This document shows, in pieces, positions 9,886 through 31,067 of a stretch of DNA of 52,436 nucleotides. How positions within the stretch are numbered: the stretch's first letter is position 1; every line of letters starts with the position of its first letter. The stretch comes from Hyphomicrobiales bacterium (lineage in GTDB: Bacteria; Pseudomonadota; Alphaproteobacteria; Rhizobiales; Hyphomicrobiaceae), in assembly GCA_038218255.1 (NCBI GenBank), contig JBBRKD010000001.1, positions 1 to 52,436 on the forward strand, in the 5' to 3' direction. The notes beneath the pieces are model-generated. The model had not been told where the DNA came from and did no database searches. It saw nothing but the letters and a program-made list of their open reading frames with translations. A program made the position numbers and the translations under genes.

Positions 9886-9935
9886 TACCACCTCCGATTT
9901 AGATGTTTTAAGCCTGAAGCAATCTATCGAAGAAT

Positions 9936-13376: not shown

Positions 13377-13384
13377 CGGGGGAT

Positions 13385-13429: not shown

Positions 13430-13444
13430 ATGATGGGTTGGTCG

Positions 13445-14197: not shown

Positions 14198-14201
14198 TGC
14201 A

Positions 14202-15704: not shown

Positions 15705-15830
15705 TTGGCGCACCTCCCCTACTATAGTGCGACGCGACGCTGCGGCGCCGTCATGAATAGCGGGCATTGGGCGATAACCGATGCGGGTGTGACCCGTGAC
15801 GCTGACAAATTATGCGCGTAGCCTGCGTTC

Positions 15831-16670
15831 ATGAAGGCGCTCATTCTTGGTGGCACTGGTCGGGTCGGGACGCATATTGTCGCTAATTTGCGTGCCTGCG
15901 GTCATGATGCGCGAAGCGCTGCGCGGTCAGGCGGCGATGTAATGCTGGACATGCGCAACGCGCAAAGCGTAATTCAAGCAGCCGACGGCTTCGACGCCGC
16001 GTTCTTTATCACGCCACTTGGCCCCGATGAAAGTGACGTCGGTGTGGCGATCGCTCAGTCCTTGCTTGCGGCGGGGGTCGGCAAGATCGGCTATCTAGCC
16101 ATCCACAACCTCGACGCAATGCGCGCGATCCCGCATTTTGAAACCAAGATTCCAGTTCGCGATGCCGTGCTCGCGACGCCGCATAGTGTGGTTGTCGCGC
16201 CAAATTTCTTTTTCCAGAACGACCTCATGGTCCTCCCCGCGATCATGCATGGTGGCATTTACCCGTTGCCGGTTGGCATCACCGGTATGTTCAGCATCGA
16301 TGTCGCGGATATCGGGTGGGCGGCGGCGCGCGCGCTGATGCACGACGATTGGGACGGCACTGTGGTGCCGGTGTGTGGCATGGATCAACTGACGGGTCCG
16401 GGCATGGCAGAAACCTGGGCCCAGGCACTCGGCAGACCAGTCACCTATCCCGGCGATGATATAAATCCATTTATCGCGATGTTGGGGCAGGTAATCCCGA
16501 ATTTCGGCGATTGGGAACGCGAGGATTTCACGAAGATGATGGCGGTAACCCAGGCGCTCGGGTGCCTTGCGACCGATGCGGACCTCGCTCTGTCGCGCGC
16601 GGTCCTTGGTCGCGAACCGCGTCGCTATACTGATTTCGTCTCAAGCATTGTTGCAGGAGAACACAATTGA
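15831..16670 (+). CDS. NmrA-like NAD(P)-binding protein (atypical SDR)
   Basis: 279 aa with the N-terminal MKALILGGTGRVGTHIV Rossmann motif. Length and layout fit the NmrA/isoflavone reductase-like family. Confidence 0.75.
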   Translation: MKALILGGTGRVGTHIVANLRACGHDARSAARSGGDVMLDMRNAQSVIQAADGFDAAFFITPLGPDESDVGVAIAQSLLAAGVGKIGYLAIHNLDAMRAIPHFETKIPVRDAVLATPHSVVVAPNFFFQNDLMVLPAIMHGGIYPLPVGITGMFSIDVADIGWAAARALMHDDWDGTVVPVCGMDQLTGPGMAETWAQALGRPVTYPGDDINPFIAMLGQVIPNFGDWEREDFTKMMAVTQALGCLATDADLALSRAVLGREPRRYTDFVSSIVAGEHN

Positions 16671-17095
16671 AACCAATGTACACAGCCGTAGCGACTGCCC
16701 AAGGCGGCCGGAGTGGCCATGCCCGATCCGACGATGGCGTTCTCGAAGTAACGCTTGCGACACCCAAGGCCATGGGCGGTTCTGGCGCGGTCGGAACCAA
16801 TCCTGAACAGCTTTTCGCGGCTGGCTATGCCGCGTGTTTTCAAAGCGCGATGATGTTTGTGGCGGGCCAGAAGAAACTCGATACGGCTGGCTGCAAAGTT
16901 ACCGCCCATGTTTCGATTGGCATGCGGGAGGATGGGCCTGGCTTTGGCCTCGCCGTGATGCACGATGTCGACCTGCCGCAACTATCGCAAGGCGACGCCG
17001 AAACACTGGTGCATGAGGCGCACCAAGTTTGTCCCTATTCGAACGCGACGCGCAACAATATCGATGTTCAATTTGCCGTGAGAGGTGCCCAATGA
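16667..17095 (+). CDS. ohr: Organic hydroperoxide resistance protein (Ohr, OsmC family)
   Basis: YTAVATAQGGRSG, TNPEQLFAAGYAACF (first Cys) and AHQVCPYSNATRNNIDV (second Cys) closely match known Ohr proteins. The TTG start at 16667 overlaps the NmrA stop. ATG 16676 is an alternative start. Confidence 0.88.
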   Translation: MKPMYTAVATAQGGRSGHARSDDGVLEVTLATPKAMGGSGAVGTNPEQLFAAGYAACFQSAMMFVAGQKKLDTAGCKVTAHVSIGMREDGPGFGLAVMHDVDLPQLSQGDAETLVHEAHQVCPYSNATRNNIDVQFAVRGAQ

Positions 17096-17562
17096 CCGGA
17101 TATACCGAAGCGCTGGTAAGGGGCGATGATGCGCCGGTTATGCGTCCGTTGACCGAAGCCGATCATCCCAACGCTCATGCGCTTTATGCGGCGCACAAGG
17201 CCTTTCAAACCGGCGATGTCGAGGCGCTGTTCGCAAAGATGGCTGATGATGTCGTCTGGCACATGCCCGGTAATAATGTGCTGGCAGGCAGCTACCACGG
17301 CCGTGACGAGATCATGCGCAATTTCGGAATGCTGCAAGCTGCAGTTGACAGCTATTGGGCGCATCCGCTCGATTATTTCGGCAGCGACAACCACGTTGTG
17401 CTTGTGGCCGAAGTGCGCGCGACCAAAGGCGACAAGACCCTGCTGACCAAGGAAGCTATGACGTGGCGCGTTGAGGGCGGCAAGCTGAAGGAATGCTGGC
17501 ATCTGTGCGTCGAACCCGAAAAATGGGACGCTTTTTTCAGCACAGCTGACGAGACGAAATAG
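17092..17562 (+). CDS. SnoaL-like / NTF2-fold protein
   Basis: 156 aa. ATG 17092 overlaps the Ohr stop (ATGA). DDVVWHMPGNNVLAGSYHGRDEI...DNHVVLVAEVRATKGDK...WRVEGGKLKECW fits the SnoaL_2-type pattern. Confidence 0.7.
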   Translation: MTGYTEALVRGDDAPVMRPLTEADHPNAHALYAAHKAFQTGDVEALFAKMADDVVWHMPGNNVLAGSYHGRDEIMRNFGMLQAAVDSYWAHPLDYFGSDNHVVLVAEVRATKGDKTLLTKEAMTWRVEGGKLKECWHLCVEPEKWDAFFSTADETK

Positions 17563-17716
17563 CAAAGCGATTTCGCACGTCAGCAAGCGCGGCCGACGGG
17601 CGCCCCAGCGACCCGTTCGACGTCCAGCGCGGGCTTTGCCCGTGCTGGTCTCTCGTCTGCCGACGACGACATTCCGGTCGTTCCAACAGTCGATGCCCCA
17701 CGCCTTTACTTGCCAT

Positions 17717-18148
17717 TCAGAAAGGCAGCGCGGCAATGTCAGGTTCCATCCATGTTCGCCGAGCGTGCACACTGAAGAGTGTTTCGCGACGCCAGTAGGA
17801 CAAAAGCCAGCCGGTGTTACCCTGCGGCGATGCCATCAGATGCTCGAGCACGACATGAATCGGAACATCATTAGAATGTCTAGTGAGATGAAAAACCGCC
17901 GCACGTAGTGATGCGATTGTGATCGTGTGATGATATCCGCTAGTATCGGTGTTCGCGGTGTGGGTCGCCTCGTTGTAACGAATAACGATCCGTTTGAACT
18001 CTGCCGGTTTCACCAGATTGGCCCGATGACGCGATAGCCAAAGCGCCGCGGCAAAGTGCCCAGCATGGGTCCACTCGGTCTTCGGTAAGGTTCGATCAAT
18101 TAGCCGCGACGTGTGCCGTTCGACAGAGATGTCGCTTGAAAATGTCAT
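17717..18148 (-). CDS. Conserved-looking hypothetical protein, no assignable family
   Basis: 143 aa from ATG 18148, with AAGGA 8 nt upstream. It is His/Trp-rich (TEWTHAGHFAAALWL, GYHHTITIASL, WLLSYWRRETLFSVHARRTWMEPD). It is monocistronic and flanked by non-coding DNA on both sides. Confidence 0.55.
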   Translation of the reverse strand: MTFSSDISVERHTSRLIDRTLPKTEWTHAGHFAAALWLSRHRANLVKPAEFKRIVIRYNEATHTANTDTSGYHHTITIASLRAAVFHLTRHSNDVPIHVVLEHLMASPQGNTGWLLSYWRRETLFSVHARRTWMEPDIAALPF

Positions 18149-18184
18149 TGCCAATGTCCTTTTCTATAAAGGCCCAATCGGCAT

Positions 18185-18209
18185 AAAAAACCCCGCCAAT
18201 TGGGCGGGG
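18185..18209 (-). terminator. Rho-independent terminator for the minus-strand amidohydrolase_2/DUF59 operon
   Basis: Read on the minus strand, a CCCCGCC stem, short loop and GGCGGGG are followed by TTTTTT. On the plus strand this is AAAAAACCCCGCCAATTGGGCGGGG. Confidence 0.75.
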
Positions 18210-18426
18210 TGGTGAGATGAAAGCTGTCCCGAGCCTGACCTACCGGCTCCAAACTTTCATAAAGCGCACGATTACCGCCGAGATATTACGGCGTTGTTGT
18301 TGAAAAATACGATCACGAGTTCGCATCGCATTAACGTGGCAGCATGTGACTTACTTTGCAACCTACGTGTCTCCTTTTCGTGCTGATTCTACAAAACCCG
18401 CCTGTCCGGAATCCACAACAAACCGG

Positions 18427-18771
18427 CTATTCCCGCCCCCGCCACGCCTGCGGTGTTCCACGCATCTTCGCGTCCGCCCCGGCCAGCCGGTCCGGCCCCC
18501 ATACAAATGCGGTATCGACCACCACCTCCACCCGCTTCACGCCCTTCAGCTTCGCCAGTTCCACCCGCGCTGCCTCGGTAAAATGCGGGGCCATCGTGCA
18601 GCCTGCGAATGTCACGCAGAAGGTGACCGACAGCGTGCCGCGCTCGAACGTCCAGCCCGTCAATAGCCCCATATCGACGAGCGAGGTTGGGCGACCCGCG
18701 GCGATGCTGCACGGATCGTGGACGCCCGCAAGCGCCGCGCGAATAGCATCGTCGGTTACTGCGCCGTCCAT
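18427..18771 (-). CDS. DUF59 / PaaD-like metal-sulfur cluster assembly-type small protein
   Basis: IRAALAGVHDPCSIAAGRPTSLVDMGLL...VTFCVTFAGCTMAPHF...VKRVEVVVD fits the DUF59 pattern, including its conserved Cys. I trimmed the start to ATG 18771, which overlaps the upstream gene by 16 nt. Confidence 0.7.
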   Translation of the reverse strand: MDGAVTDDAIRAALAGVHDPCSIAAGRPTSLVDMGLLTGWTFERGTLSVTFCVTFAGCTMAPHFTEAARVELAKLKGVKRVEVVVDTAFVWGPDRLAGADAKMRGTPQAWRGRE

Positions 18772-19835
18772 ACCGACCACGGTTTCTGCAACTCCACACC
18801 GTCGAACGCGTCGCCCTGTTGCTTTTGACGCCATTCGCCCACATCGAGGCCGATCATCCGCGCGTAGTTGCCGCCCAGGATCATCCGCTTCACCTGATCG
18901 TCGATTGGCGGGATGCCGTGCCGCGCTTGTGTGTCTGCCGAAAATTCAAAAGCCCAGAATAATTCGAGCAGATGCTGCGGATGAACGACGGTGCAACCTG
19001 TAGACCACAGGATCTTTTCTGGCCCACCCCATTGCATGAGCAGCGCAAGCGCTGCCTCGAACCGGCCGGGGGCCTGCCACAGCATCGCGGTTGTCGTTTC
19101 CAGATTGGCATAGACATTAGGAAAGCGCCCAATTGCCATCGCGGTTTCTTCGATAAACGCCATGCCCGAATGCACGATTTCAAATGCCATATCGGGAAAA
19201 GCGTCAGCCGCTTGTTCGAAATCCTCGCCGATTCGGTAGGGCGCGAGTGGAACCGATCCATTCGGTAACGCCTTGTGGATAGCGATTGTTTTAAGTCCCA
19301 GTGTCTGCGCGCGTTCAATCAGCCGCATCACCGTATCGTCATTGGCGAGCCAGCGGCGATACGGGTCCATCTGATGCGGATAGAGCTTGACGCCCACGGC
19401 ATTGGGCGTCGCCGCGGCTTGGCGCTCAAGATCCTCGATTACCATATTTACGTCCTGCGTAGGATCGAGCCCGACATAGCCCAACACCCGCGTCGGCCAG
19501 CGCGTCGTCATTTCCACCGTTTTCCATTCGGCGGCAAAGCCATCCTTGAACCAGCTGTCGAGCCTAAGGGTATGTGTCGCGACGAGGCTCGTCTGGCTTT
19601 CGTCGAACATTGTGCGGACGAGCGCTTCGGGTCTCATATCGGTCATATAAGTAGCTTGCGGGCACAGCGCATGCGGCGGGCTAAGCATCGCGTGCAACCC
19701 ATAGGACATTATGTGCAGCTGCGCGCCGTATTTTGACGCCACATTGTCTTCCGACAAATTAAGTGCGTGGACCACGGGGTCGATGACAAACACATCATCG
19801 GGTAGGGAACGCAATCCATCGAGCGATGCAGACAT
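18756..19835 (-). CDS. Amidohydrolase_2-type TIM-barrel protein (ACMSD/LigW-like decarboxylase or hydratase family)
   Basis: 359 aa with ATG 6 nt after AAGGAG. It carries VIDPVVHALN, VKLYPH, IAIHKA, EIVHSGMAF and KILWSTGC...ILGGNYARMIGL. It is a shorter paralogue of 14202-15704. Confidence 0.7.
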   Translation of the reverse strand: MSASLDGLRSLPDDVFVIDPVVHALNLSEDNVASKYGAQLHIMSYGLHAMLSPPHALCPQATYMTDMRPEALVRTMFDESQTSLVATHTLRLDSWFKDGFAAEWKTVEMTTRWPTRVLGYVGLDPTQDVNMVIEDLERQAAATPNAVGVKLYPHQMDPYRRWLANDDTVMRLIERAQTLGLKTIAIHKALPNGSVPLAPYRIGEDFEQAADAFPDMAFEIVHSGMAFIEETAMAIGRFPNVYANLETTTAMLWQAPGRFEAALALLMQWGGPEKILWSTGCTVVHPQHLLELFWAFEFSADTQARHGIPPIDDQVKRMILGGNYARMIGLDVGEWRQKQQGDAFDGVELQKPWSVWTAQ

Positions 19836-19976
19836 TCTGGTCTCCTTGTTCGTTGATTATGCCGCAATTGTGCGCGGTTACCACGGCGTCGCAAGCAGGG
19901 GGGCATAACCACTATTCATGCGCAACGTGTTCGCTGTGCAGTTTTACCGACGGCCGGTGCGCGTAGCGTTGGTCTT

Positions 19977-21272
19977 ATGGCTTCTCAACTGTACAATCCT
20001 GATCCATCGTCGCTCGTCACCCGCGATCATGTTCACCGCTCTGTCTACACCGATCCGGCAATCTTCGATCTTGAGATGGCGCGAATTTTTGGGCGGAGCT
20101 GGCTCTATCTCGCGCATGACAGCGAGCTGCCGAGTCCTGGCGATTATGTCGTGCGCCATATGGGCACGCAGGCGGTAATCCTGACGCGAGCGAAGGACGG
20201 GGTGGTGCACGCGATCTTCAATCGTTGCGCGCATCGCGGTGCAACGCTGTGCGCCTTTGATCGCGGCCAAGCCCCCAATGGGCATCAGTGTCCCTATCAC
20301 GGCTGGACTTTCAACGCCGACGGATCGGTGCGGTTTGTATCGCAGGCGGTGAATTATGCCGAGGTCCTAGATCCGGCCAACTCTGGCATCCCCCAAATTC
20401 GGCTGGAAAGCTATCGTGGTTTTATTTTCGGCAATCTCGATAACGATGCGGGGCCGCTGAGCGAATTTTTGGGGCATATGAAATCGACGATCGACGATCT
20501 GGTTGATCGCTCGCCAACAGGCCGGATTGAAGTCGGTGCCTACAAGCTACGGCATTATTACCGCGCTAACTGGAAAATGACATTCGAAAACTTGAACGAC
20601 ACCGTCCATCCCGGCTTTGCTCATGCCGCTTCCGTGGTCTCGGCCAAAGCCGTCGCGAATGCAGTCGGTGGCGACAATATTGTGCCGACGGTCGGCATGA
20701 TGATGGCAAACGGCAAGCCGATCCAGTTTTTTCAGGATTTGGATATGGTCACCACGCCCGGCGGCCACAGCTATATCGGTGGCCATATGGGTGCCGATTA
20801 TACGCCCAACACCGCCGATGCTTACACCGCCGCCCTGATCGCCCATCACGGGGCCGAACGCGCGCGTGAAGTGCTGTCGGTTGATCGGCATTTGATGCTG
20901 CTTTACCCATCGTCATTCTGGCACGCACGTTATCAAACGGTCCGCATTATCCGCCCGGTGCGTCACGACCTGACCGAAATGATCGGTTTCACGTTCCGCC
21001 TCATTGGCGCGCCGCCAGAAACACATGTCAACGCGATTGAATATTGCACGGGCGCGAATTCGGCCGCCTCACCTGTGATCGCCGACGATCTCGAAATTTA
21101 CGAGCGCCTCTTGCTTGGTAACCGGACAGGTAGCCAGGAATGGATCCCGATGAGCCGCGGGTTGAACGAGGATCGCGAGACGACCAACATATTTACACGA
21201 ACGCCCGCAACGTCAGAGGCGTTTATCCGGAACCAGTTTGCCAGCTGGTCCGCCATGATGGCGCGCACATGA
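19977..21272 (+). CDS. Rieske non-heme iron ring-hydroxylating oxygenase, alpha subunit (benzoate/toluate/anthranilate dioxygenase-like)
   Basis: The Rieske motif is CAHRGATLC...CPYHGW. The mononuclear iron region is NWKMTFENLNDTVHPGFAH (HxxxxH). The N-terminus VHRSVYTDPAIFDLEMARIF..WLYLAHDSELPSPGDY resembles BenA/AntA-type enzymes. Confidence 0.88.
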   Translation: MASQLYNPDPSSLVTRDHVHRSVYTDPAIFDLEMARIFGRSWLYLAHDSELPSPGDYVVRHMGTQAVILTRAKDGVVHAIFNRCAHRGATLCAFDRGQAPNGHQCPYHGWTFNADGSVRFVSQAVNYAEVLDPANSGIPQIRLESYRGFIFGNLDNDAGPLSEFLGHMKSTIDDLVDRSPTGRIEVGAYKLRHYYRANWKMTFENLNDTVHPGFAHAASVVSAKAVANAVGGDNIVPTVGMMMANGKPIQFFQDLDMVTTPGGHSYIGGHMGADYTPNTADAYTAALIAHHGAERAREVLSVDRHLMLLYPSSFWHARYQTVRIIRPVRHDLTEMIGFTFRLIGAPPETHVNAIEYCTGANSAASPVIADDLEIYERLLLGNRTGSQEWIPMSRGLNEDRETTNIFTRTPATSEAFIRNQFASWSAMMART

Positions 21273-21745
21273 CTGAGATCGAAGACTTAATCCACATTGA
21301 GGCGGCGTTGCTCGATGACCGCCGTTATCACGACTGGCTAGATTTGTTCACGCAAGACTGTCTGTATTGGGTGCCGGTGGCAGCCGAGATGGTGTCACCC
21401 CGCGATGGGCCGAGCCATTTCCATGATGACCGGCAGGTGATGATGGTCCGTACGCATCGTCTCGCCAATCCGCGCGCGTTCGGGGCTGAGCCTGCGCCAC
21501 GAACCGTGCATATCGTTTCGGGCGTTCGCATCGAGCGTGACAATGCGGACGGGATCGTCGTCGCATCGAGCCAGATCATGCTCGAATATCGCAACCGTGA
21601 CCGTTTTGAAGATGACCAACGCGTCTTTGGGGGCCGCGTGCGTCATCGCCTAATCCGTACAGAAAATGGTCTGCGCATTGCTGAAAAGCGCATTGATCTT
21701 ATCAATGCTGAAGGCGCGTTCAATGCCATGGCGGCACCAATATGA
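21269..21745 (+). CDS. Ring-hydroxylating dioxygenase beta subunit
   Basis: 158 aa. ATG 21269 overlaps the alpha stop (ATGA). IHIEAALLDDRRYHDWLDLFTQDCLYWVP...MLEYR fits the small-subunit NTF2-like fold. Confidence 0.85.
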   Translation: MTEIEDLIHIEAALLDDRRYHDWLDLFTQDCLYWVPVAAEMVSPRDGPSHFHDDRQVMMVRTHRLANPRAFGAEPAPRTVHIVSGVRIERDNADGIVVASSQIMLEYRNRDRFEDDQRVFGGRVRHRLIRTENGLRIAEKRIDLINAEGAFNAMAAPI

Positions 21746-22947
21746 ACGATCCGATCGCCTGGATCCCTTATGGTGCCTATTGGGCGACCCCGTTCGTCCG
21801 CTGGCAGGGCGCCTTTGCTGAATTGCACAGCTTGAAATTTGCAAGTTGGGTTGCGGCGCGCGCGTTGGCGAAACGCGGCATCGATCCCACTGTGTTTGAT
21901 TTCGGCGTGTTGGGATTCACCGTTCCGCAAAAGGGGAGCTTCTACGGTCTTCCCTGGGTGATGGGGGAAATTGGCGCAGTCGGCGTTGGCGGCCCGACGA
22001 TCATGCAGGCATGTGCGACCTCTGCGCGCTGTGTTCAGGTCGCGGCCGGTGAGATTGCAAGCGGAGCGGCAACAACTTCGCTCGTGCTGGCTTGTGACCG
22101 TGTTTCGAATGGCCCGCATATCTATTATCCTTCGCCATCGGCTCCGGGCGGAACCGGCGAGACCGAAAACTGGGTGATCGACAATTTTGCGCGTGATCCC
22201 TTCGCTGGCGTTGCCATGATCGAAACAGCCGAAAACGTTGCCCGAAAATGGGGTATCGAGCGGGTTGAACAAGACGATGTCACGCTTGCGCGATATGCCC
22301 AATATGACGACGCGCTTGCCGATGACCGCGCGTTTCATCGTCGCTTTATGGATTTACCCTTTGAGGTACCTGATCTGCGTTTTCGCAAGATTGCAGCGGT
22401 CCTCGACGGCGATCAAGGCGTTCAGCCTGCCAATCCGGACAAGCTACGGGCGTTGAAACCGGTGCAAGACGGGGGCAGCGTGACGTTCGCCGGCCAGACG
22501 CACCCTGCCGACGGCAATGCCGCTATAGTAGTCGCCGATCGCGACCATGCACGCGAACTTTCGCAAAGGCGCGCATTTGAAATTGCAATTCTTGGTTTTG
22601 GCATGGCCCGCGTCGAACCGGCCTTCATGCCCGCCGCACCCGTGCCCGCTGCAAAGCGGGCGCTCGACGCTGCGGGCCTGACCATCGCGCAAATCGATGT
22701 CGTTAAATCGCACAATCCTTTTGTCGTCAACGATATCGTTTTTGCGCGCGAAACGGGCTTTGATATTGCTGCGATGAATGCATTTGGCTGTTCGCTGGTC
22801 TGGGGGCATCCGCAGGGGCCAACGGGTTTGCGCGGGCTGATCGAACTGATTGAGCAACTCGCGATGCGCGGGGGTGGACGGGGATTGTTTCAAGGGTGCG
22901 CAGCGGGCGATACGGCAATGGCCGTCGTTATGGAAGTGCGCGGATGA
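21742..22947 (+). CDS. Thiolase-family protein (acyl-CoA C-acyltransferase-like)
   Basis: 401 aa with an ATGA overlap with the beta subunit. All four classical thiolase catalytic positions look present: Cys in MQACATSARC, Asn in SHNPF, His in WGHPQGPTG and Cys in GCAAGD. Confidence 0.8.
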   Translation: MNDPIAWIPYGAYWATPFVRWQGAFAELHSLKFASWVAARALAKRGIDPTVFDFGVLGFTVPQKGSFYGLPWVMGEIGAVGVGGPTIMQACATSARCVQVAAGEIASGAATTSLVLACDRVSNGPHIYYPSPSAPGGTGETENWVIDNFARDPFAGVAMIETAENVARKWGIERVEQDDVTLARYAQYDDALADDRAFHRRFMDLPFEVPDLRFRKIAAVLDGDQGVQPANPDKLRALKPVQDGGSVTFAGQTHPADGNAAIVVADRDHARELSQRRAFEIAILGFGMARVEPAFMPAAPVPAAKRALDAAGLTIAQIDVVKSHNPFVVNDIVFARETGFDIAAMNAFGCSLVWGHPQGPTGLRGLIELIEQLAMRGGGRGLFQGCAAGDTAMAVVMEVRG

Positions 22948-24434
22948 TTGCGCGGGCAGACGGAACGCGCGTTTGGGTGCCTGAAACGACCGTCGCTATA
23001 CTCGAGCGTGCAGCCACAGAACGGCCGAACGTACTGGCCCTCATCTGTGGCGAACGTGAACTCTCCTATCGCGAATATGCAGATGCGGTGTCGGGTTTGG
23101 CCAGTCGCCTTGTTGATGCTGGCGCGACGGGAAGAACTGTCGCGATTGTACTGCGCAACAGTATCGAGATATGTATCGCGATGTTTGCGGTGCATGCAGC
23201 CGGGGCGACGGCAGCCGCTTTGAATCCTGATTATACCAAATCCGAACTTGCCCCGATGTTTGCCGACGCTCAACCGGTCGTGACCCTGACGCACGATGAT
23301 CTCGCTGATCGCGTTACGGCGCTTTGTCCCGGTGAGATATGGACCGATCTCGAGACTTTGCCCCCAGTTCTGACATCGCTGCCCGCGATCGCCGACGAAA
23401 GCATCGCAACGCTGCAATTCACTGGCGGTACGACGGGCCGTCCGAAAGGGGTCATGCTCAGCCACCGCGCGATTGCGACCAATGTTGCGCAGCGTGAGGC
23501 TGTGGTTCCCTCCAATTTTGGCGATGAACGCATTATTTGCGTTATGCCGCTGTTCCATATTTTTGCGATGGCTATGGGGCTGCACCTGGCGGCCTATGCT
23601 GCGGGTACGCTTGTTATTTTGCCGCGTTATCGTCCGGACTGGGTCATGGATGCAATTGAGCGTTACGCGATAACGCGGTTTCCGGCAGGGCCAACGGTGT
23701 TTAACAGCTTACTCGGGTTCGATGGCCTTGACCGGGCCCGCTTATCGACGGTTCGCTGCGCTTATTCGGGGTCAGCTCCGCTCGCGCACGATACGCTGAC
23801 GCGCTGGGAAGCAGCGACTGGCATTCCAATCTACGAAGGCTATGGCCAGAGCGAGGCCGGGCCGATCTTGACCCATCACGGGCCCGGCATGACCTTGAAA
23901 CAAGGTTCGGTCGGTCCCGCGTTGCCGGGCACCGAAATAGGTATCGTAGGCGGTGATGTTGGAGAAATCCGAGCGCGCGCCCCACAGATTATGACTGGCT
24001 ATCTTGATCGACCCGACGAAACCGCTGCTGCGCTCAACGATGGGTGGCTCTATACTGGTGATATTGGCCGGATTGATGCCGATGGCTATCTTTTCATTGA
24101 GGACCGCAAGAAGGATATGGTGATCGTCGGCGGTTACAATGTTTATCCGCGCGAGATCGACGAGGTGCTGATGGCGCACCCCGATATCGTCGAGGCTGCC
24201 GCCATTGGCGTGCCCGACGCCTATCGCGGCGAAGTCATCTGGGCCTTTATTGTCGGTGATTTAAGTGAGGCCGCCGTTCTTGAACGCTGTGAAGCAGCGC
24301 TGGTGCGCTACAAACATCCAAACACTATCCGGTTCATCCGCGCTTTGCCGCGGACAAGCGTCGGCAAAATCGATAAACAAGCACTGAAAGTCATGGCACG
24401 GGCTGACATAGAGGGTCGTCAGAATGTCGCTTGA
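22944..24434 (+). CDS. AMP-dependent acyl/aryl-CoA ligase (class I adenylate-forming enzyme)
   Basis: Carries LQFTGGTTGRPKGVMLSH, GYGQSEAGP, YTGDIGRIDADGYLFIEDRKKDMVIVGGYNVYPREIDE and SVGKIDK. ATG 22944 overlaps the thiolase stop (ATGA). Confidence 0.85.
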   Translation: MIARADGTRVWVPETTVAILERAATERPNVLALICGERELSYREYADAVSGLASRLVDAGATGRTVAIVLRNSIEICIAMFAVHAAGATAAALNPDYTKSELAPMFADAQPVVTLTHDDLADRVTALCPGEIWTDLETLPPVLTSLPAIADESIATLQFTGGTTGRPKGVMLSHRAIATNVAQREAVVPSNFGDERIICVMPLFHIFAMAMGLHLAAYAAGTLVILPRYRPDWVMDAIERYAITRFPAGPTVFNSLLGFDGLDRARLSTVRCAYSGSAPLAHDTLTRWEAATGIPIYEGYGQSEAGPILTHHGPGMTLKQGSVGPALPGTEIGIVGGDVGEIRARAPQIMTGYLDRPDETAAALNDGWLYTGDIGRIDADGYLFIEDRKKDMVIVGGYNVYPREIDEVLMAHPDIVEAAAIGVPDAYRGEVIWAFIVGDLSEAAVLERCEAALVRYKHPNTIRFIRALPRTSVGKIDKQALKVMARADIEGRQNVA

Positions 24435-25287
24435 ACAAGTCGATTCGCTACGCACAATGTTGCTTGCCAGGCGGAGCGGCCCGCCGCCGTCGCTCGAGCA
24501 ACGGCGCGCAGGTTTCGAGGCACAAATGGCAATGATACCATTGCCGGCGGACGCAGTTTTTACGTCCGATCCGGAATTGCCCGGCTTGTGGGTCGACTTG
24601 CCCGGTGGCGATTCGTCCGCTGCGATTCTGTGGCTGCATGGCGGCGCGTTCGTCCTCGGGTCCTCTGCCAGCTATCGCGATTTTGGCTGTCGGTTGGCGG
24701 CATCAAGTGGGGTCCGGGTGTTCCTGCTCGACTACCGGCTTTCGCCCGAACATGTGTTTCCCGCTGCGCTCGACGATTCTGATGCGGCACTTGACCGGCT
24801 AACGGCGCGCGGGCTGAAATTGGCGGTGGGCGGCGATTCAGCAGGTGGCAATTTGGCGGTCGCGGCGATCCAAGCGCGTATTGCCAAGGGCCAGACTGTC
24901 CCTGACGCTTGCCTTTTGGTCTCGCCCTATCTTGATCTGACCCATATCGGGAACAGCGCTGCAACGCGCGCGCATCTTGATCCTTTCGTCGATCCAGCGA
25001 CGATGACGGCGACCGCAGCGACGTATCACGGCGATGCCGATCCCGCCGATCCGCGCGTGTCGCCATTGTTCGGCGCGATCAATGGCTTTCCGCCGACGTT
25101 AATTCAAGTCGGCTCAGACGAGGTGCTGTTCGACGACGCCAAGCGTTTTGCGGACCGCCTACCCGATGTAGTGTTTCAAGAATGGGTGGGCATGATCCAC
25201 GTCTGGCCGCTATTTGCGATTGATGAGGGCGACTGGGCGATTGTGCAAATAGGATCTTTCGTGCAGCGTCAATTGCTTCAAACCTAA
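24424..25287 (+). CDS. Alpha/beta hydrolase, hormone-sensitive-lipase (HSL) type esterase
   Basis: Has the LWLHGGAFVLGS oxyanion motif, the GDSAGGNL nucleophile elbow, a C-terminal Asp (SDEVLFDD) and His (GMIHVW). The start overlaps the ligase 3' end by 11 nt. Confidence 0.85.
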   Translation: MSLEQVDSLRTMLLARRSGPPPSLEQRRAGFEAQMAMIPLPADAVFTSDPELPGLWVDLPGGDSSAAILWLHGGAFVLGSSASYRDFGCRLAASSGVRVFLLDYRLSPEHVFPAALDDSDAALDRLTARGLKLAVGGDSAGGNLAVAAIQARIAKGQTVPDACLLVSPYLDLTHIGNSAATRAHLDPFVDPATMTATAATYHGDADPADPRVSPLFGAINGFPPTLIQVGSDEVLFDDAKRFADRLPDVVFQEWVGMIHVWPLFAIDEGDWAIVQIGSFVQRQLLQT

Positions 25288-25331
25288 AACATATTCGTTG
25301 CGCTTATGGCAAATGATGATAGCTTTTCGCG

Positions 25332-26246
25332 ATGGAGTTGCGGCAACTTAAGCATTTTCAGGAAATCGTGCGCTGCGCGAGTTTTGGCCAAGCGGCTGAT
25401 AAGCTGCATATTACGCAGCCTGCGCTAAGCAAAAGTATTCGCAATCTTGAGCGCTCGCTCGATGTGATGCTGCTCGAACGTCATCCTGGTGGCGTCACGC
25501 CGACCGAATATGGCTATGTTTTTCTCGACTATGCCACGCTGGTCACGTCCGAGCTTGAGCGTGCAGCAGATCAAATTGCAGAAATGAAGGGGCGCGGTAA
25601 AGGGGTCGTTCGCGTCGGTGCCGGGGCAACGATGCTCCAATATATAATGCCAAAAGCCGTGCGCTTGTTCATGGCGGGGGCCGATGCGGGCAGCGTTACC
25701 TTTGCCCAAGGACTTCGCGCCGATTTGCTCGCGATGTTAAGGCGTGGTGAGATCGATGTCGTCGTCGGTTCGGTCAATCCCGATCAGGTCGATGATGATC
25801 TTCGGCAGGAACTCGTGCTCGAAGATCGCCTGACAATTGTTGCTGACCGCAATCATCCGATATTGCAAACGGCAACGCCTGGCTTCGATCAACTGCGATG
25901 TTTCAAGTGGGTGCTGCCCGATGCGAGTGAATCCGAAGGCGATAGGCTGAGTCGCGCATTCCGGAGCGCGGGTGTGCAGCCGCCCGATTGTGCCGTCAGG
26001 ACCAGTTCGTCGATCTTCATGGCTTCACTGTTGCGCGACAGTGAATATCTCAGCTATCTGCCGCGCGCGCTCATTGCCAGTGATCCTGATTACAACCATC
26101 TCGTGCCAGTGACGTTAGTCGAGCCCGTCTGGTCGCGGGTGTTCGTTGGCGCGACTTATCGACGACGCGGGGTCATGCTCGCGCCAACGCGGCGTTTTAT
26201 CAATCGACTGAAGGACGTTGGCCGCGAACTTCAGCCGATGGTCTAA
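25332..26246 (+). CDS. LysR-family transcriptional regulator
   Basis: The N-terminal HTH is MELRQLKHFQEIVRCASFGQAADKLHITQPALSKSIRNLE, followed by a ~200-aa substrate-binding domain. Confidence 0.9.
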   Translation: MELRQLKHFQEIVRCASFGQAADKLHITQPALSKSIRNLERSLDVMLLERHPGGVTPTEYGYVFLDYATLVTSELERAADQIAEMKGRGKGVVRVGAGATMLQYIMPKAVRLFMAGADAGSVTFAQGLRADLLAMLRRGEIDVVVGSVNPDQVDDDLRQELVLEDRLTIVADRNHPILQTATPGFDQLRCFKWVLPDASESEGDRLSRAFRSAGVQPPDCAVRTSSSIFMASLLRDSEYLSYLPRALIASDPDYNHLVPVTLVEPVWSRVFVGATYRRRGVMLAPTRRFINRLKDVGRELQPMV

Positions 26247-26869
26247 GTTGTTACCGATGCGTTTTCGAAAAGCGTCGACCAGTCCGAAAGCGATTGAAGC
26301 ACAATCGGACGGCCATCAACCACGTGAAAAGGCATTCCGGTGACGCCGGGATCAACGCGGTACCGCTCCGTCAGTGCGAATATCGCTTCGACGTCCTGGT
26401 CAGTTCCCAGATACGCGCGTAGTTCTTTGCCCGCCATGCCCACGGCCGTCGCCAGTTCCACCAGCGTGTCAACGTCGCCGATGTAGCGCGCCTTCTCGTA
26501 AAATGCGGTGTAGATTGATTCGAGCATTTGCCGCCCCAGACCGCGCCCTTTTGCGAAATGCACTGTCCTGTGTCCGTGGATCGCATGCGCGCCATGCTCG
26601 ATCCGGTAAAAGGCAAAGGAAATCCCCACGTCAGCACCGAGCGCGATAACGCGGTCCCACATTGGATCTCGCGCTTCATCACCATATTTGCCCGTAAACA
26701 CGCCGCGAAAGCTGTGCGGTGTGGTGATCGGCAGGGTGGGATGCAACATGAAGGGGCGAAGTTCGATGTCGACTGTAACGTCGGGGAACCGCTCGATGCT
26801 CAGATCAAGGTAGCGTTTCGCAAGATAGGAAAAGGGGCAGAGAATGTCATAATAAGCGGTGATCTGCAT
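26243..26869 (-). CDS. DsbA-like thioredoxin-fold protein with a monothiol CPFS motif (HCCA-isomerase/FrnE-like)
   Basis: 208 aa. The N-terminus MQITAYYDILCPFSYLAKRY is the DsbA-family active-site position with Ser replacing the second Cys. The C-terminus has GVTGMPFHVVDG. The stop codon overlaps the convergent LysR stop. Confidence 0.7.
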   Translation of the reverse strand: MQITAYYDILCPFSYLAKRYLDLSIERFPDVTVDIELRPFMLHPTLPITTPHSFRGVFTGKYGDEARDPMWDRVIALGADVGISFAFYRIEHGAHAIHGHRTVHFAKGRGLGRQMLESIYTAFYEKARYIGDVDTLVELATAVGMAGKELRAYLGTDQDVEAIFALTERYRVDPGVTGMPFHVVDGRPIVLQSLSDWSTLFENASVTT

Positions 26870-27113
26870 GATCGCACAAACCTTGCATGAAGGACGCGTT
26901 GTCGTTGGATCGTTGACCGCTACAACCGATACACGTCCTGATTATGAAGTAGTGATAGCTACAGAGGCACTGGTCATTCCTCGCTGGGGGAGCAATATAA
27001 ACCTTACGGGCGTTCGCAAACACGCCCAAGACCGGAGCGTCGATGTTTACCCGCGATCTTAAAAGCGTCTTTCATAGTGTAACTTGGGTAAGAATTTGAA
27101 ACGCAAGTGCAGG

Positions 27114-27548
27114 TCATTTAGCCGCGGCCTCCACCCGACGCAGCAATTCGTCGAGTTTCGCTCGTTCTTCACGCGTGAGTATCCCGAACAAATCTGCCTC
27201 GGTGGTGAGCGCGAGTGGCGCGATTTCATTATAAAGCGCGCGTCCATCGTTGGTGAGTGACAGAAAGTGCGACCGGCCATCGAAAGGGTTGTTATCAATC
27301 GTCACCAAACTGCGTTCGACCAGCGCGGCGGCGGCGCGACTGACGGCGATCTTGTCCATCTGTGTGGCTTCACACAATAAAGCGGGCGTCTGGCGCGAGC
27401 TTTCGGCGAGGATGGCAATAAGGCGCCATTCGGCGATGTTGAGGCCGAAACGCTTGCGATACGTACCCGAAATTCGTGCCGAAACCGCGTTCGATGCAAC
27501 AGACAACCGATATGGGAGGAAGCGTTCAAGGATGAGCAACGATGCCAT
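27114..27548 (-). CDS. MarR-family transcriptional regulator
   Basis: 144 aa with LPYRLSVASNAVS...FGLNIAEWRLIAILAE...MDKIAVSRAAAALVERSLV...DGRSHFLSLTNDG. It is divergent from hppD. Confidence 0.88.
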   Translation of the reverse strand: MASLLILERFLPYRLSVASNAVSARISGTYRKRFGLNIAEWRLIAILAESSRQTPALLCEATQMDKIAVSRAAAALVERSLVTIDNNPFDGRSHFLSLTNDGRALYNEIAPLALTTEADLFGILTREERAKLDELLRRVEAAAK

Positions 27549-27576
27549 GAAACTTGACCATCGCCCGTTATAGATT

Positions 27577-27594
27577 TAGTTACAAGTGCAACTA
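27577..27594. promoter_or_regulatory. Candidate MarR operator palindrome in the MarR/hppD divergent region
   Basis: TAGTTACA-AG-TGCAACTA, with half-sites matching 7 of 8. It lies 29 nt from the MarR start and 16 nt upstream of the hppD GTG. Confidence 0.45.
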
Positions 27595-27609
27595 TTTCTG
27601 GAGCGTCGC

Positions 27610-28701
27610 GTGACTGACCTTTTCGATAATCCGCTGGGGCTCGACGGGTTCGAGTTTGTCGAATTCTGTTCGCCCGACAAAGGCTTGCTCGAGCCGATCT
27701 TCAAAACGATGGGGTTTGCCCGCATTGCGAGACACCGGTCGAAAGACGTCGAGTTGTGGCGGCAGGGCGGCATTAATCTGATCGCCAACTACGAACCGCG
27801 TAGCCCAGCTTCTTATTTCGCGGCCGAACATGGGCCGTCGGCGTGCGGCATGGGGTTTCGTGTGCGCAATGCCAAGGCGGCCTATGAGGAAGCGCTGCGT
27901 CGCGGGGCCGAGCCGGTCGAGACGGCGACGGGGCCGATGGAACTACGCATTCCCGCCATCCGGGGGATTGGCGGCGCGATGATCTATCTGATCGATCGTT
28001 ATGGCGACGAAGGTTCTGGCGGGCTGTCGATCTATGACATTGACTTCGATTATCTTCCCGGCGTTGACCGCAATCCGGTGGGCGCGGGGTTCCGCCTGAT
28101 CGATCATCTTACGCATAATGTTTACGGCGGGCGGATGGCGCATTGGGCAGCGTTTTACGAGCGTATCTTCAACTTTCGCGAGATCCGCTATTTTGACATC
28201 AAAGGCGAATATACCGGGCTGACGAGCCGCGCGATGACCGCGCCCGACGGCAAAATCCGCATCCCGCTGAACGAAGAAGGCAAAGCGGGCGGCGGGCAGA
28301 TCGACGAATATCTGCGCGCCTATAATGGCGAGGGGATCCAGCATATTGCGCTCATTTGCGATGACCTGATTGCCTGTATCGATCGGCTGTGCGCCAACGG
28401 CGTTGCGCTGATGTCAGCGCCGCCCGCGACCTATTATGCGATGCTTGAGGAGCGGCTGCCGGGACATGGTGAGCCGGTGGAAGAACTGAAAGCACGCGGC
28501 ATCTTGCTCGACGGTTCGACCGAAGATGGCGACCCGCGTCTGCTGCTCCAGATTTTCGCGCAGCCGAAGATCGGGCCGGTGTTCTTTGAATTTATCCAGC
28601 GCAAGAAGGACGAGGGCTTCGGCGAAGGCAATTTCACTGCGCTTTTCAAGTCGATCGAGCGTGAGCAGATGGAGCGCGGGGTGCTGGAGCAGGCATCGTG
28701 A
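27610..28701 (+). CDS. hppD: 4-hydroxyphenylpyruvate dioxygenase
   Basis: Near-colinear with Pseudomonas-type HPPD as I recall it: [58 protein letters not shown] and [30 protein letters not shown] trimmed the start to GTG 27610, with GGAG 6 nt upstream. Confidence 0.92.
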
Positions 28702-29252
28702 GTGTTCCTTTCAGCACGCAGCGCATCCATCATGTGGCCTATCGGTGTCGCGATGCGAAGGCGACGGTCGACTGGTATGAACGAGTCCTTGGCTTCCGCT
28801 ATACCAATGCGTTTGCCGAGGATCATGTGCCTTCTACCGGCGATTATGATCCGTATATGCATGTTTTCCTTAATTGCGGCGGTGGCAATGTTGTGGCGTT
28901 TTTCGAATTGCCGAACCAGCCCGACATGGGCCGTGACCAAGCAACACCGGCATGGGTGCAGCATCTGGCGTTCGAAGTGGCGGACTTCGATATGCTGCGC
29001 GCGGCAAAAGCGCATATCGAGGGGCAGGGCGTCGACGTGCTTGGGCCGACCTACCACGGCATTTTCCACTCGATCTATTTTTTCGATCCTAATGGCCACC
29101 GGTTGGAGCTGGCGTGCAACATCGGCACGGTCGATCAATATGCCGAACTCGAACGCGTCGCGCCAATGATGCTTGACGAGTGGGCACAAACGAAAAAAGC
29201 GCCCCGCCACGCCGACTGGCTGCATGTGGACCGGGGCTCGCTTGGCGAATGA
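28698..29252 (+). CDS. VOC-superfamily (glyoxalase/bleomycin resistance/extradiol dioxygenase fold) protein
   Basis: 184 aa with a GTG start overlapping the hppD stop (GTGA). Candidate metal ligands sit in [17 protein letters not shown] and GHRLELA. Confidence 0.75.
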
Positions 29253-29408
29253 AACGCTCATCATTCATAACTATGCGAGCGCAGCCGATCAGCGCTTTGC
29301 AATGCCGCCTAAAGCTTTTGTCACTGACGTGACGCATGAAGCGGACAGCACGTTTCTGAGAGCACAGATCGTTTTTGTTAATGCTTGCAAACCGTCAAAG
29401 TGATGCCC

Positions 29409-29684
29409 CTAATCATCGTTAAAATACGCGTAATTCGGATCATACACATAATATGCGACCACTGTTTTTGTTTTTTTGACATGCCCCATACCGATGATAG
29501 GTCCAACGACTTCGCGCCCAACGTCCAGACGGTTGTCAATCTCGACGCGAATGAGAATGTCCCATTTGCCGCTGATTGAGCTGATGTCGCAGACATATTT
29601 CAGTTTCGCCTTTGCGAGCGCGGTCGCAACTTCGTAAGTTTTGCCGAGGTCGGTCTGCAGGAAAACAAAAAAGCGTTGCATCAT
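29409..29684 (-). CDS. Stand-alone Lrp/AsnC-type ligand-binding (RAM/ACT-like) domain protein
   Basis: 91 aa. FFVFLQTDLGKTYEVATALAKAKLKYVCDISSISGKWDILIRVEIDN...VGPIIGMGHVKKTKTVV matches the beta-alpha-beta-beta-alpha-beta pattern of AsnC_trans_reg domains. No HTH is present. ATGA overlaps the upstream gene. Confidence 0.6.
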   Translation of the reverse strand: MMQRFFVFLQTDLGKTYEVATALAKAKLKYVCDISSISGKWDILIRVEIDNRLDVGREVVGPIIGMGHVKKTKTVVAYYVYDPNYAYFNDD

Positions 29685-31002: not shown

Positions 31003-31067
31003 CGCGCTTGCCGTTTGACAGTAGGCTGACTGGTCGGGATAGGCCTGTAGGCTTTTGGAAAACCAAC

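Follow-up and report, generated by a model that had tools for sequence, protein, structure and literature searches.

An operon joining an IadD-related Rieske oxygenase to a beta-ketothiolase is the core of a conserved gene module that may convert indoleacetate-type acids to 2-aminobenzoyl-CoA

What reaction sequence is served by an operon in which the two subunits of a Rieske oxygenase are followed by a thiolase, an acyl-coenzyme A (CoA) ligase and an esterase? Such an operon lies in a 52,436-nt stretch of contig JBBRKD010000001.1 from a Hyphomicrobiales bacterium (assembly GCA_038218255.1). The whole of this stretch is called the window here, and nearly all of its open reading frames (ORFs) were annotated with Pfam and NCBIfam models. 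A sequence-only reading had likened the five genes to the ipf cluster for ibuprofen degradation, and had suggested that an aryl-alkanoyl-CoA is dioxygenated and loses its side chain by thiolysis, giving a catechol. Our results show a gene module that is real, conserved and uncharacterised, and they suggest a different answer. We tentatively propose, at somewhat less than even chances, that these five genes form the core of a catabolic module spanning about 24 kb, which would convert an aromatic acid of the indole-3-acetic acid (IAA) type to 2-aminobenzoyl-CoA and acetyl-CoA.

The five genes lie on the forward strand and code for the alpha subunit of a Rieske oxygenase (431 aa, PF00355 and PF00848; 19977-21272), its beta subunit (158 aa, PF00866 at 95 bits; 21269-21745), a beta-ketothiolase (401 aa, Thiolase_N and Thiolase_C; 21742-22947), an AMP-forming acyl-CoA ligase (496 aa, PF00501 and PF13193; 22944-24434) and an alpha/beta hydrolase of the hormone-sensitive lipase (HSL)/family IV type (287 aa, PF07859 or Abhydrolase_3 at 150 bits; 24424-25287), which is the esterase that had been described as appended to the operon. 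The junction sequences agree with the chain of overlaps proposed earlier: alpha/beta, beta/thiolase and thiolase/ligase are each joined by ATGA, and ligase/esterase by ATGTCGCTTGA, an 11-nt overlap. A LysR-type regulator (25332-26246, forward strand; HTH_1 and LysR_substrate) directly follows the esterase. On the other side, a 141-bp divergent intergenic region (19836-19976), the presumed promoter/operator region, separates the start codons of the alpha gene and of an Amidohydro_2 gene on the reverse strand (18756-19835; 359 aa, PF04909 at 74 bits). The latter is followed on the same strand by a DUF59/FeS_assembly_P gene (18427-18771, ORF to 18834; about 114 aa, PF01883), whose likely start at 18771 gives a 16-nt overlap with the Amidohydro_2 stop. 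The two divergent genes of the sequence-only reading are thus present, but the likeness of the DUF59 protein to PaaD is weak, as are its SufT-like matches. A strong terminator was found at 18210-18190, 3' of the DUF59 gene; the rest of the promoter and terminator scan stayed at background, and the promoter scan of the 141-bp region gave no established motif. The order and orientation of these genes are repeated in 29 independent loci, and the arrangement is therefore not due to chance.

The oxygenase gives the first indication of the substrate. The alpha subunit has the Rieske ligands C84, H86, C105 and H108 and the iron ligands H211, H216 and D371 of a 2-His-1-carboxylate site, and with the PF00866 beta subunit it has the features of an alpha3beta3-type Rieske non-haem iron oxygenase. 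Its earlier description as BenA-type did not hold. The best NCBIfam model was benA with 199 bits against a cut-off of 781, and AntA (185 against 672) and HcaE (170 against 830) scored lower still. The best solved relatives were IadD of Variovorax (PDB 9o71 and 7yls) with 270 bits over the full length, followed by HcaE with 150 bits. Identity is 33-35% to IadD and 30% (30.5%) to IpfA of plasmid pIBU218, while the beta subunit is 28-31% identical to IadE and 29% to IpfB. IpfA, BenA and AntA, which had been put forward for comparison, are therefore all below their cut-offs or farther away than IadD. The window's alpha falls within the IadD superclade, apart from IadD in a clade of its own, which we call the W family.

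IadD is the alpha subunit of IadCDE, the starter enzyme of IAA degradation in the iad locus, and a cryo-EM study of IadD named seven residues of the IAA pocket (N210, L211, F251, H311, K322, R329 and Y362). The aligned residues of the window's alpha are N205, L206, N245, H305, H316, R323 and Y356, of which five are identical; the two others correspond to F251N and K322H. At the same positions IpfA has N, D, N, P, G, I and N, with one of the seven IadD residues, and one of the seven aligned pocket residues is common to the window's alpha and IpfA. IadDE works on free IAA in vitro. Because the Arg/His/Tyr set of IadD is retained, the pocket suggests that the window's oxygenase takes a free acid and not a CoA thioester; the IadD papers themselves name no carboxylate-binding residue.

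The nearest characterised oxygenase thus belongs to a second system of the same kind, and ipf, which had been taken as the only precedent, is not the closest one. The iad locus (Variovorax paradoxus; iad-like loci on plasmids of Sulfitobacter, Roseibium and Azospirillum) codes for the IadCDE oxygenase, the AMP-forming ligase IadF, the thiolase IadG, the short-chain dehydrogenase/reductase (SDR) IadH, the cyclase-type amidase IadI and the SDR IadJ. Like the window, it combines a Rieske alpha/beta pair with a ligase and a thiolase-fold enzyme. IadCDE has been reported to act as a monooxygenase giving a C10H9NO3 product, which is then hydrated and dehydrogenated; the acetate side chain is removed by the ligase and the thiolase-fold enzyme, and the pathway ends in anthranilate. 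The ipf operon (Sphingomonas Ibu-2; pIBU218 of Rhizorhabdus wittichii MPO218) also resembles the window in holding a Rieske alpha/beta pair, a thiolase-fold enzyme and a ligase, and both follow the logic of cleaving a C-C bond adjacent to a ring carbon that has been oxygenated. We compared the window with an iad-like locus of a Sulfitobacter indolifex plasmid (L083) and with the ipf locus of pIBU218 (L085); for the retrieval of true iad loci, IadD was reconstructed from its PDB alignment and used as a tblastn query. IpfD (L085, 13228-14826) and IadG (L083, 14845-17258) are 31% identical over their full length, and the DUF35 protein IpfE matches the N-terminus of IadH. Therefore, ipf and iad have a common side-chain-cleaving device made of an SCPx-type thiolase and a DUF35 protein, and the window is without it. 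Searches of the window by tblastn with IpfD, IpfE, IadG, IadH, IadC and IadI gave no homologue, and the DUF35-like N-terminus of IadH gave no match in the 52 kb either, in agreement with the earlier statement that no DUF35 gene is present.

Compared with iad, the window is thus without an IadC-type reductase, an SCPx-type IadG, a DUF35-SDR IadH and a cyclase-type IadI, and it adds the HSL esterase and Amidohydro_2, DUF59, OsmC, NmrA and SnoaL genes; its predicted product is a CoA thioester, whereas that of iad is free anthranilate. Compared with ipf, it has a thiolase with no similarity to IpfD, no IpfE and no linked catechol lower pathway. The SDR encoded at 13445-14257 is 32% identical to IadJ over 247 residues and 39% in a stretch of 132 residues, which is generic SDR similarity. 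The module is accordingly neither an ipf-type cluster nor an iad orthologue, and is a third arrangement around an IadD-related oxygenase. In our literature search no publication describing it was found, a preprint on skatole gave no useful precedent, and no IAA phenotype was found for Erythrobacter sp. NFXS35. The absence of electron-transfer genes, which had been listed among the peculiarities of the locus, is real: annotation and a Cys/His motif scan of all ORFs of at least 60 aa detected no ferredoxin or oxygenase reductase in the 52 kb, where alpha is the sole real ORF with a genuine Rieske/ferredoxin Cys/His motif. It is not distinctive, however, since the same was seen in every family locus examined, with no reductase beside the oxygenase in the W loci with listed genes (L086, L087, L088, L089, L090 and L093).

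The thiolase differs from those of both known systems. Alignment to solved thiolases identified the catalytic residues Cys91 (QACAT), His356 (GHP) and Cys386 (GCAAG), while the usual NEAF asparagine loop is replaced by HNPF (His324-Asn325). The claim of a classical thiolase with all four catalytic residues thus stands for the two cysteines and the histidine and needs qualifying for the asparagine loop. Cys91 and Cys386 are invariant in 31 of 31 orthologues, and HNPF and GHP are retained in 30 of the 31. From these residues the enzyme looks catalytically competent for thiolysis. It reached 175 bits with TIGR01930 (cut-off 240.55) and 106 with pcaF (cut-off 597), and blastp against IpfD and against IadG gave no match at E<0.01, so that neither of the types named earlier for comparison, IpfD/SCPx or PaaJ/PcaF, describes it. 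All matches of a homologue search were orthologues with 69% identity or more, under names that gave no information. By its sequence, the enzyme belongs to a small and rare HNPF subfamily.

One distant relative is informative. In a tblastn search of 72,556 plasmids a single match below 1e-30 was obtained, on Pseudonocardia plasmid pLS2-2, with 45% identity over 401 residues and with QACAT, HNPF, GHPQGPTG and GCAAGD motifs common to both proteins. The pLS2-2 gene is located in a type II polyketide synthase (PKS) cluster whose content mirrors the enterocin cluster, with genes for ketosynthase (KS)-alpha, KS-beta, acyl carrier protein, acyltransferase, P450, a major facilitator superfamily (MFS) transporter, an FAD-binding oxidoreductase, FabG, a methyltransferase and an aromatic amino-acid ammonia-lyase. 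EncJ of enterocin-type clusters is the beta-ketoacyl-CoA thiolase of benzoyl-CoA biosynthesis, and its implied reaction, aroylacetyl-CoA + CoA to aroyl-CoA + acetyl-CoA, is the one that we propose for the window's thiolase. The EncJ context is biosynthetic and actinobacterial, and the comparison was made with the pLS2-2 protein and not with EncJ of 'Streptomyces maritimus' itself. A Cys-dependent beta-ketothiolase requires a 3-oxoacyl-CoA as its substrate, and the ipso-diol and tertiary-alcohol intermediates of ipf and iad have no 3-oxo group. The use of a different thiolase type in those two pathways fits this difference, because their intermediates offer no 3-oxoacyl-CoA.

The ligase and the esterase were also classified by their best matches. 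The ligase is of the aliphatic, malonyl-CoA-synthetase-like type: its best PDB match is MatB (4fuq, 228 bits), and it gave no match to the benzoate-CoA-ligase family (TIGR02262), unlike the ligase of aminobenzoyl-CoA clusters. Its motifs are TGGTTGRPKG at 160, GYGQSE at 299 and GKI at 474; it is 28% identical to IadF and 29% to IpfF, the latter being at the general level of the ANL superfamily. The esterase carries HGG72, GDSAG137 (with Ser139), Asp232 and His259, as is typical for HSL/family IV; its best PDB match is EstD11, and it reached 220 bits with the NCBIfam GESAG subfamily, below the cut-off of 430. In distant loci it stays in the oxygenase operon, immediately after alpha/beta (L086 and L088) or after the ligase (L087 and L090). 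HGG and GxSxG motifs also occur in the eukaryotic kynurenine formamidases, which are alpha/beta hydrolases. By analogy, the esterase could be an aryl-formylamine amidohydrolase; alternatively, it could be a lactonase or lactamase that works on what the oxygenase forms.

The conservation of the module was analysed in a scan of one genome per species, which returned 80 loci. The W family makes up 29 of them, with alpha subunits of 62-81% identity, and all are from Sphingomonadales or unclassified metagenome-assembled genomes; the genera include Erythrobacter, Qipengyuania, Alteraurantiacibacter, Sphingomonas, Sphingobium (Sphingobium algorifonticola), Stakelama and Sandaracinobacter. The alpha protein is represented by more than 100 clusters at 90% identity and by 29 species-level genomes. 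The gene order is NmrA, OsmC, SnoaL / DUF59, Amidohydro_2 / alpha, beta, thiolase, ligase, esterase, LysR, with DUF59 next to Amidohydro_2 in related loci, and a second amidohydrolase, an SDR, a TonB-dependent receptor and a double-SnoaL protein are usually encoded nearby. Erythrobacter litoralis DSM 8509 (CP017057.1) carries the complete module, at about 1.955-1.976 Mb. The LysR gene has the same position in 27 of the 29 loci, and in L086, L087, L088 and L090.

Beyond this family the block is progressively reduced. L087 (alpha 56%) retains it, together with an MFS transporter. L086 (alpha 48%) is rearranged, with a thiolase-ligase pair, a tripartite ATP-independent periplasmic (TRAP) transporter and then alpha-beta-esterase-LysR, and is without the Amidohydro_2, DUF59, OsmC and SnoaL genes; in one of the distant loci the TRAP transporter is of the carboxylate type. 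L088 (8000-13781) is a decayed minimal module of the L086 type, in which the ligase is cut to 74 aa and the TRAP binding protein to 116 aa; this decayed module is located about 2 kb from Mu-like prophage genes. In L090 the order is alpha-beta-ligase-esterase-LysR followed by a double-SnoaL gene, with no thiolase between beta and ligase. Since alpha, beta, esterase, ligase, thiolase and LysR persist as a set at 48-56% alpha identity despite rearrangement, they constitute the functional core. Their linkage persists across the range of 81% to 48% alpha identity, rearranged loci included, which supports the view that the Rieske oxygenase is functionally coupled to a predicted ligase and thiolase pair excising a C2 unit from an aryl- or heteroaryl-alkanoic acid. 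Thus, the part of the sequence-only reading that coupled oxygenase, ligase and thiolase in side-chain removal is upheld by synteny, while dioxygenation of an aryl-alkanoyl-CoA and a catechol product are unsupported.

The remaining loci, with alpha identities of 38-43%, form an uncharacterised sister clade, the D family, with a DLH-SnoaL fusion, alpha, beta and an SDR, and with no thiolase; an isochorismatase-family hydrolase and a PDR/VanB reductase are present in some. Its members include Achromobacter, a plasmid of Variovorax SPNA7 and plasmid pCAR1 (among them L044, L057, L081 and L092, the last being pCAR1 7354-26640). Loci of this identity range (L030-L081) were considered as iad loci and rejected, as Pfam shows the DLH-SnoaL, alpha/beta and SDR arrangement without a thiolase. 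The D family has a pocket signature of N-L-N-H-H-R-Y, which equals that of the window at seven of seven positions, and it also resembles the window in having a hydrolase and a SnoaL domain beside the oxygenase. If the esterase is a lactonase or lactamase, the DLH domain of the D family would be its counterpart. D loci differ from the window in having, in place of a thiolase and an aliphatic-type ligase, a benzoate-CoA-ligase-family enzyme or antABC.

A destination of the product is suggested by a second gene cluster. At 2745-10934 on the reverse strand the window contains an aroyl-CoA cluster with genes for a flavoenzyme, an SDR, a PRK08258-type hydratase, two acyl-CoA dehydrogenases and a double-SnoaL protein, and with no ligase or thiolase of its own. 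The 785-aa flavoenzyme (7582-9939) is a fusion of an FAD-monooxygenase and an old yellow enzyme (OYE) domain (PF01494 and PF00724) of the 2-aminobenzoyl-CoA monooxygenase/reductase type, and passes the NF006101 equivalog model with 1268 bits against a cut-off of 1078. It is accompanied by the SDR (6833-7585), with co-localised orthologues in L004, L012, L029, L082 and D loci; by the enoyl-CoA hydratase (5546-6352; NF006107, 472 bits against 330), with orthologues of 70-82% beside flavoenzyme genes in W and D loci and L082, and of only 51% in L015; and by an acyl-CoA dehydrogenase (4374-5678), with orthologues of 60-75% in L019, L029, L082 and D loci. The fusion enzyme with SDR, hydratase and acyl-CoA dehydrogenase resembles the 2-aminobenzoyl-CoA monooxygenase/reductase pathway of Azoarcus evansii, which is the presumed downstream pathway here.

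Within 10 kb of alpha, a flavoenzyme homologue was found in at least 16 D loci, in L082 and in 15 of the 29 W loci, where it lies upstream in some and downstream in others; frequently it is accompanied by its SDR, hydratase and acyl-CoA dehydrogenase partners. In E. litoralis a 785-aa homologue is encoded immediately past the LysR gene, and the second Amidohydro_2 gene of this species is in an operon with an SDR gene and a double-SnoaL gene. The iad-like locus of Azospirillum (L082) runs directly into the flavoenzyme/SDR/hydratase/acyl-CoA dehydrogenase set, in Achromobacter the D-family cluster has aminobenzoyl-CoA flavoenzyme genes at its side, and in pCAR1 the D-family cluster, with its own PDR/VanB reductase, adjoins antA. 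Anthranilate is the demonstrated end product for IadDE. All three sister oxygenase clades (IadD, D and W) are thus tied to anthranilate catabolism. Their ligases differ: a benzoate-CoA-ligase-family gene (TIGR02262, 347 bits) was found in at least 21 D loci, where it neighbours the flavoenzyme genes if the flank extends that far, whereas such a gene occurs within 10 kb in only 2 of the 29 W loci, which have the MatB-like ligase and the thiolase. In the simplest interpretation of these differing ligase types, the D-family product is a free aromatic acid that has to be activated, and W delivers an aroyl-CoA by thiolysis. In the related loci examined, no catechol-cleavage genes (extradiol or intradiol dioxygenases) are conserved with the module. 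Because an aminobenzoyl-CoA-type cluster, and no catechol-cleavage gene, travels with the module, its product is more likely to be an aroyl-CoA than a catechol.

Building on the observed gene identities, motifs, synteny and linkage, we infer a substrate, an order of steps and a chemistry of oxygenation and hydrolysis as follows. The acid would be taken up by the TonB-dependent receptor, or by TRAP or MFS transporters in relatives outside the order. The alpha3beta3 oxygenase would act on the C2=C3 bond in the pyrrole ring of the free acid, in the manner of its relative IadDE, using electrons from a reductase encoded elsewhere. The HSL-type hydrolase would then open or deformylate the oxygenation product, either by removing an N-formyl group or by opening a lactone or lactam, and the SnoaL, NmrA, SDR and Amidohydro_2 proteins of the Sphingomonadales version may assist. 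The outcome would be 2-aminobenzoylacetate, a beta-keto acid, which for IAA would form via o-formaminobenzoylacetate. The aliphatic-type AMP ligase would convert it to 2-aminobenzoylacetyl-CoA, and the Cys/His/Cys beta-ketothiolase, unrelated to IadG, would yield 2-aminobenzoyl-CoA and acetyl-CoA. Finally, the flavoenzyme (7582-9939) with its SDR, hydratase and acyl-CoA dehydrogenase would process the aroyl-CoA.

IAA is the leading substrate candidate, as a reasoned hypothesis and not as a result, and we regard it as possible, on the lower side of even. It fits better than indole-propionate or tryptophan, because an acetic-acid side chain makes the ring-opened product a beta-keto acid. A sequence from IAA through o-formaminobenzoylacetate and o-aminobenzoylacetate to anthranilate was suggested for Bradyrhizobium (Egebo et al., 1991, as related in PMC4274814), and our literature search found no genes assigned to it. 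A doubtful but wider proposal is that the module represents a third aerobic IAA route after iac and iad, with Rieske-initiated pyrrole opening, a hydrolase, and a ligase with an EncJ-like thiolase leading to 2-aminobenzoyl-CoA. It would then supply the missing genes of the 1991 Bradyrhizobium route and be widespread in marine and freshwater Erythrobacteraceae and Sphingomonadaceae living with algae and plants. N-formyl-2-aminobenzoylacetate is isomeric with dioxindole-3-acetate (both C10H9NO4), so that mass alone cannot separate the routes.

Several points weigh against this proposal. The chemistry of oxidation, that is the oxygenation and hydrolysis steps, is its weak link: to our knowledge, no Rieske oxygenase delivers a C2-C3-cleaved indole, and the minimal locus L086 has no dehydrogenase gene that could account for a further two-electron oxidation. 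The two pocket differences F251N and K322H may mean that the substrate is a more polar relative of IAA. The D family, with the identical pocket, goes with a binding protein of the benzoate-derivative type and not of the IadK2 type; an IadK2-like assignment was considered for it and rejected, as its best PDB matches are benzoate-derivative binding proteins, with no support for IAA. The window's regulator is of the LysR type, whereas iac and iad loci use an IAA-sensing MarR type; the sole MarR gene (27114-27548) is 2 kb away by the gene for 4-hydroxyphenylpyruvate dioxygenase (HPPD), and its product is 32% identical over 97 residues to the MarR protein of the Sulfitobacter iad-like locus. The placing of the pLS2-2 thiolase at the EncJ position was inferred from cluster context. 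About 25 kb downstream the window also has a gene of the benzoate-CoA-ligase family (49648-51288, forward strand; TIGR02262 at 344 bits), a probable 2-aminobenzoate-CoA ligase that is possibly related to the module but distant from it and is 51% identical to the ligase of the Achromobacter aminobenzoyl-CoA cluster, and free anthranilate could also enter the lower pathway through this enzyme. NF006101 covers salicylyl-CoA 5-hydroxylase as well, and the amino and hydroxy versions are taken together here. Finally, the function of every family member is a prediction from sequence.

Some of these points lead to the alternative that survives best, although we judge it unlikely. The alpha/beta pair, with the esterase and the SnoaL, SDR and amidohydrolase proteins, would set free an aromatic acid, anthranilate or another, as seems to be the case in the D family. 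The ligase and thiolase would act later, for example in the beta-oxidation of a side-chain fragment that has been released or of the ring-opened compound formed by the flavoenzyme. The D family with the same pocket needs no such ligase and thiolase, the window has its own benzoate-CoA-ligase-family enzyme, flavoenzyme clusters were observed without a thiolase of their own, and L090 has no thiolase between beta and ligase. However, the absence of a thiolase from flavoenzyme clusters also argues in the opposite direction, as the lower-pathway clusters of the D family and of Azospirillum function without such an enzyme. In L086, moreover, the thiolase-ligase pair stays with alpha/beta-esterase-LysR while no flavoenzyme cluster is present within 10 kb, and the nearest non-orthologous relative of the thiolase occurs in an aroyl-CoA-forming context.

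An oxygen analogue of the route is improbable. In this scheme an O-heterocyclic or phenolic acid of the coumarin, 4-hydroxycoumarin, chromone or benzofuran type would be converted via 2-hydroxybenzoylacetate to salicylyl-CoA and gentisyl-CoA, with the esterase as a lactonase and the 785-aa flavoenzyme hydroxylating salicylyl-CoA. A lactonase role suits an HSL-type esterase, the NCBI name of NF006101 is 'bifunctional salicylyl-CoA 5-hydroxylase/oxidoreductase', and DSBA-like and FAA-hydrolase genes, possibly for gentisate steps, are located near the module in the window, L019, L023 and L087. Yet no gentisate 1,2-dioxygenase was found in the ORF annotation of the window, and both sister oxygenase clades point to anthranilate. 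The flavoenzyme gene is also followed by SDR, hydratase and acyl-CoA dehydrogenase genes, a combination that would be anticipated for the non-aromatic compound which the 2-aminobenzoyl-CoA enzyme forms in the Azoarcus pathway.

The ipf-like scheme of the sequence-only reading, in which an arylacetic or arylpropionic acid is converted to its CoA thioester, dioxygenated at the ipso/ortho positions and stripped of its acyl-CoA chain by the thiolase to give a catechol, has become highly improbable. The gene set is the same in kind as ipfABDF in one operon, and the ligase is marginally nearer to IpfF than to IadF. Nevertheless, the alpha subunit has 30% identity to IpfA and one of seven pocket positions, and retains the Arg/His/Tyr set of the free-acid enzyme IadD. 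The SCPx thiolase and DUF35 protein, a pair suited to tertiary-alcohol cleavage, are missing, the ipso-diol lacks the 3-oxo group that a Cys-dependent beta-ketothiolase needs, and neither extradiol nor intradiol dioxygenase genes accompany the module as conserved neighbours in the related loci examined. Chance co-transcription, with ligase, thiolase and esterase acting on aliphatic substrates unrelated to the oxygenase, agrees with best NCBIfam models that are fatty-acid and malonyl-CoA ligases and a generic acetyl-CoA acyltransferase (all below their cut-offs), but it is extremely improbable given the translational coupling, the co-occurrence over wide divergence and after rearrangement, and a thiolase subfamily so rare that 72,556 plasmids held a single relative.

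Among the accessory proteins, the Amidohydro_2 family of 18756-19835 is essentially confined to the Rieske-thiolase module: 391 homologues were found in 5.8 billion proteins, and the top 120 all have at least 63% identity. No PDB relative was found by sequence or by profile. An AlphaFold2 model built from database homologues (pLDDT 90) gave LigW, dihydroxybenzoate decarboxylases, LigY and IDCase as the best Foldseek matches, all distant (TM 0.5-0.57), and on such LigW/decarboxylase/LigY matches no function was assigned. Conserved D19, H23, H88, H154, H187, E219, H222 and H285 suggest a putative active site. The DUF59 protein retains a DPC motif and may aid maturation of the Rieske protein. Upstream, the forward strand codes for a TonB-dependent receptor (11100-13376; Plug and beta-barrel), with an orthologue of 59-72% in 22 of the 29 related loci, an NmrA-like NAD(P)-binding protein (15831-16670; PF05368), kept in most of them, an OsmC-family protein (16667-17095; PF02566) and a SnoaL_2 protein (17092-17562; PF12680), whose start has an ATGA overlap with the OsmC stop; both of the latter are kept in 28 of the 29. 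The reverse strand codes for a double SnoaL-domain protein (9936-10934; 332 aa, two SnoaL domains), the SDR dehydrogenase (13445-14257; ORF of 270 aa, adh_short_C2), both kept in related loci, and a second Amidohydro_2 protein (14202-15767; 521 aa, PF04909), with 60-76% identity in most of them. In E. litoralis the SnoaL and DUF59 genes adjoin, whereas in the window they are separated by an extra stretch of about 860 bp (17563-18426); this stretch holds the terminator at 18210-18190 and a 145-aa ORF (17717-18154, reverse strand) with no Pfam or NCBIfam match and no counterpart in related loci.

Other genes of the window were recorded in addition. The genes at 475-2720, for an aldehyde dehydrogenase and for a p-hydroxycinnamoyl-CoA hydratase/lyase that reached 457 bits with NF006588 (cut-off 276), form a pair for side-chain cleavage of hydroxycinnamates (ferulate/coumarate). 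The region 26243-31961 codes for DSBA-like, MarR, HPPD, glyoxalase-fold, SnoaL_4 and FAA-hydrolase-family proteins and a second LysR, and looks like a homogentisate- or gentisate-type neighbourhood. On the forward strand, 44404-51288 holds genes for a GMC oxidoreductase, an indolepyruvate:ferredoxin oxidoreductase (IOR)-like 2-oxoacid oxidoreductase (45951-49283; a 1110-aa fused POR/DUF6537 protein) and the benzoate-CoA-ligase-family ligase. As iad loci carry iadA and iadB, the IOR-like gene was considered as iad evidence, and it was left unused at only 23% identity to the IadA-type IOR. A LuxR-type regulator with an autoinducer-binding domain is encoded at the contig edge (51473-52264, forward strand).

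If the proposed function is true, many Sphingomonadales associated with algae and plants would remove auxin by a route missed in genome screens for iac and iad, because their alpha subunit is below the 40% identity threshold of these screens. The route would conserve CoA by excising the acetate side chain through true aroylacetyl-CoA thiolysis, where ipf and iad use an SCPx thiolase and a DUF35 protein, and would have a Rieske oxygenase as the first enzyme of a pathway that opens the indole ring. Should the substrate be a compound other than IAA, the three sister Rieske clades IadD, D and W, each wired differently into anthranilate metabolism, still offer a useful case in which to study the rebuilding of catabolic pathways around a single oxygenase.

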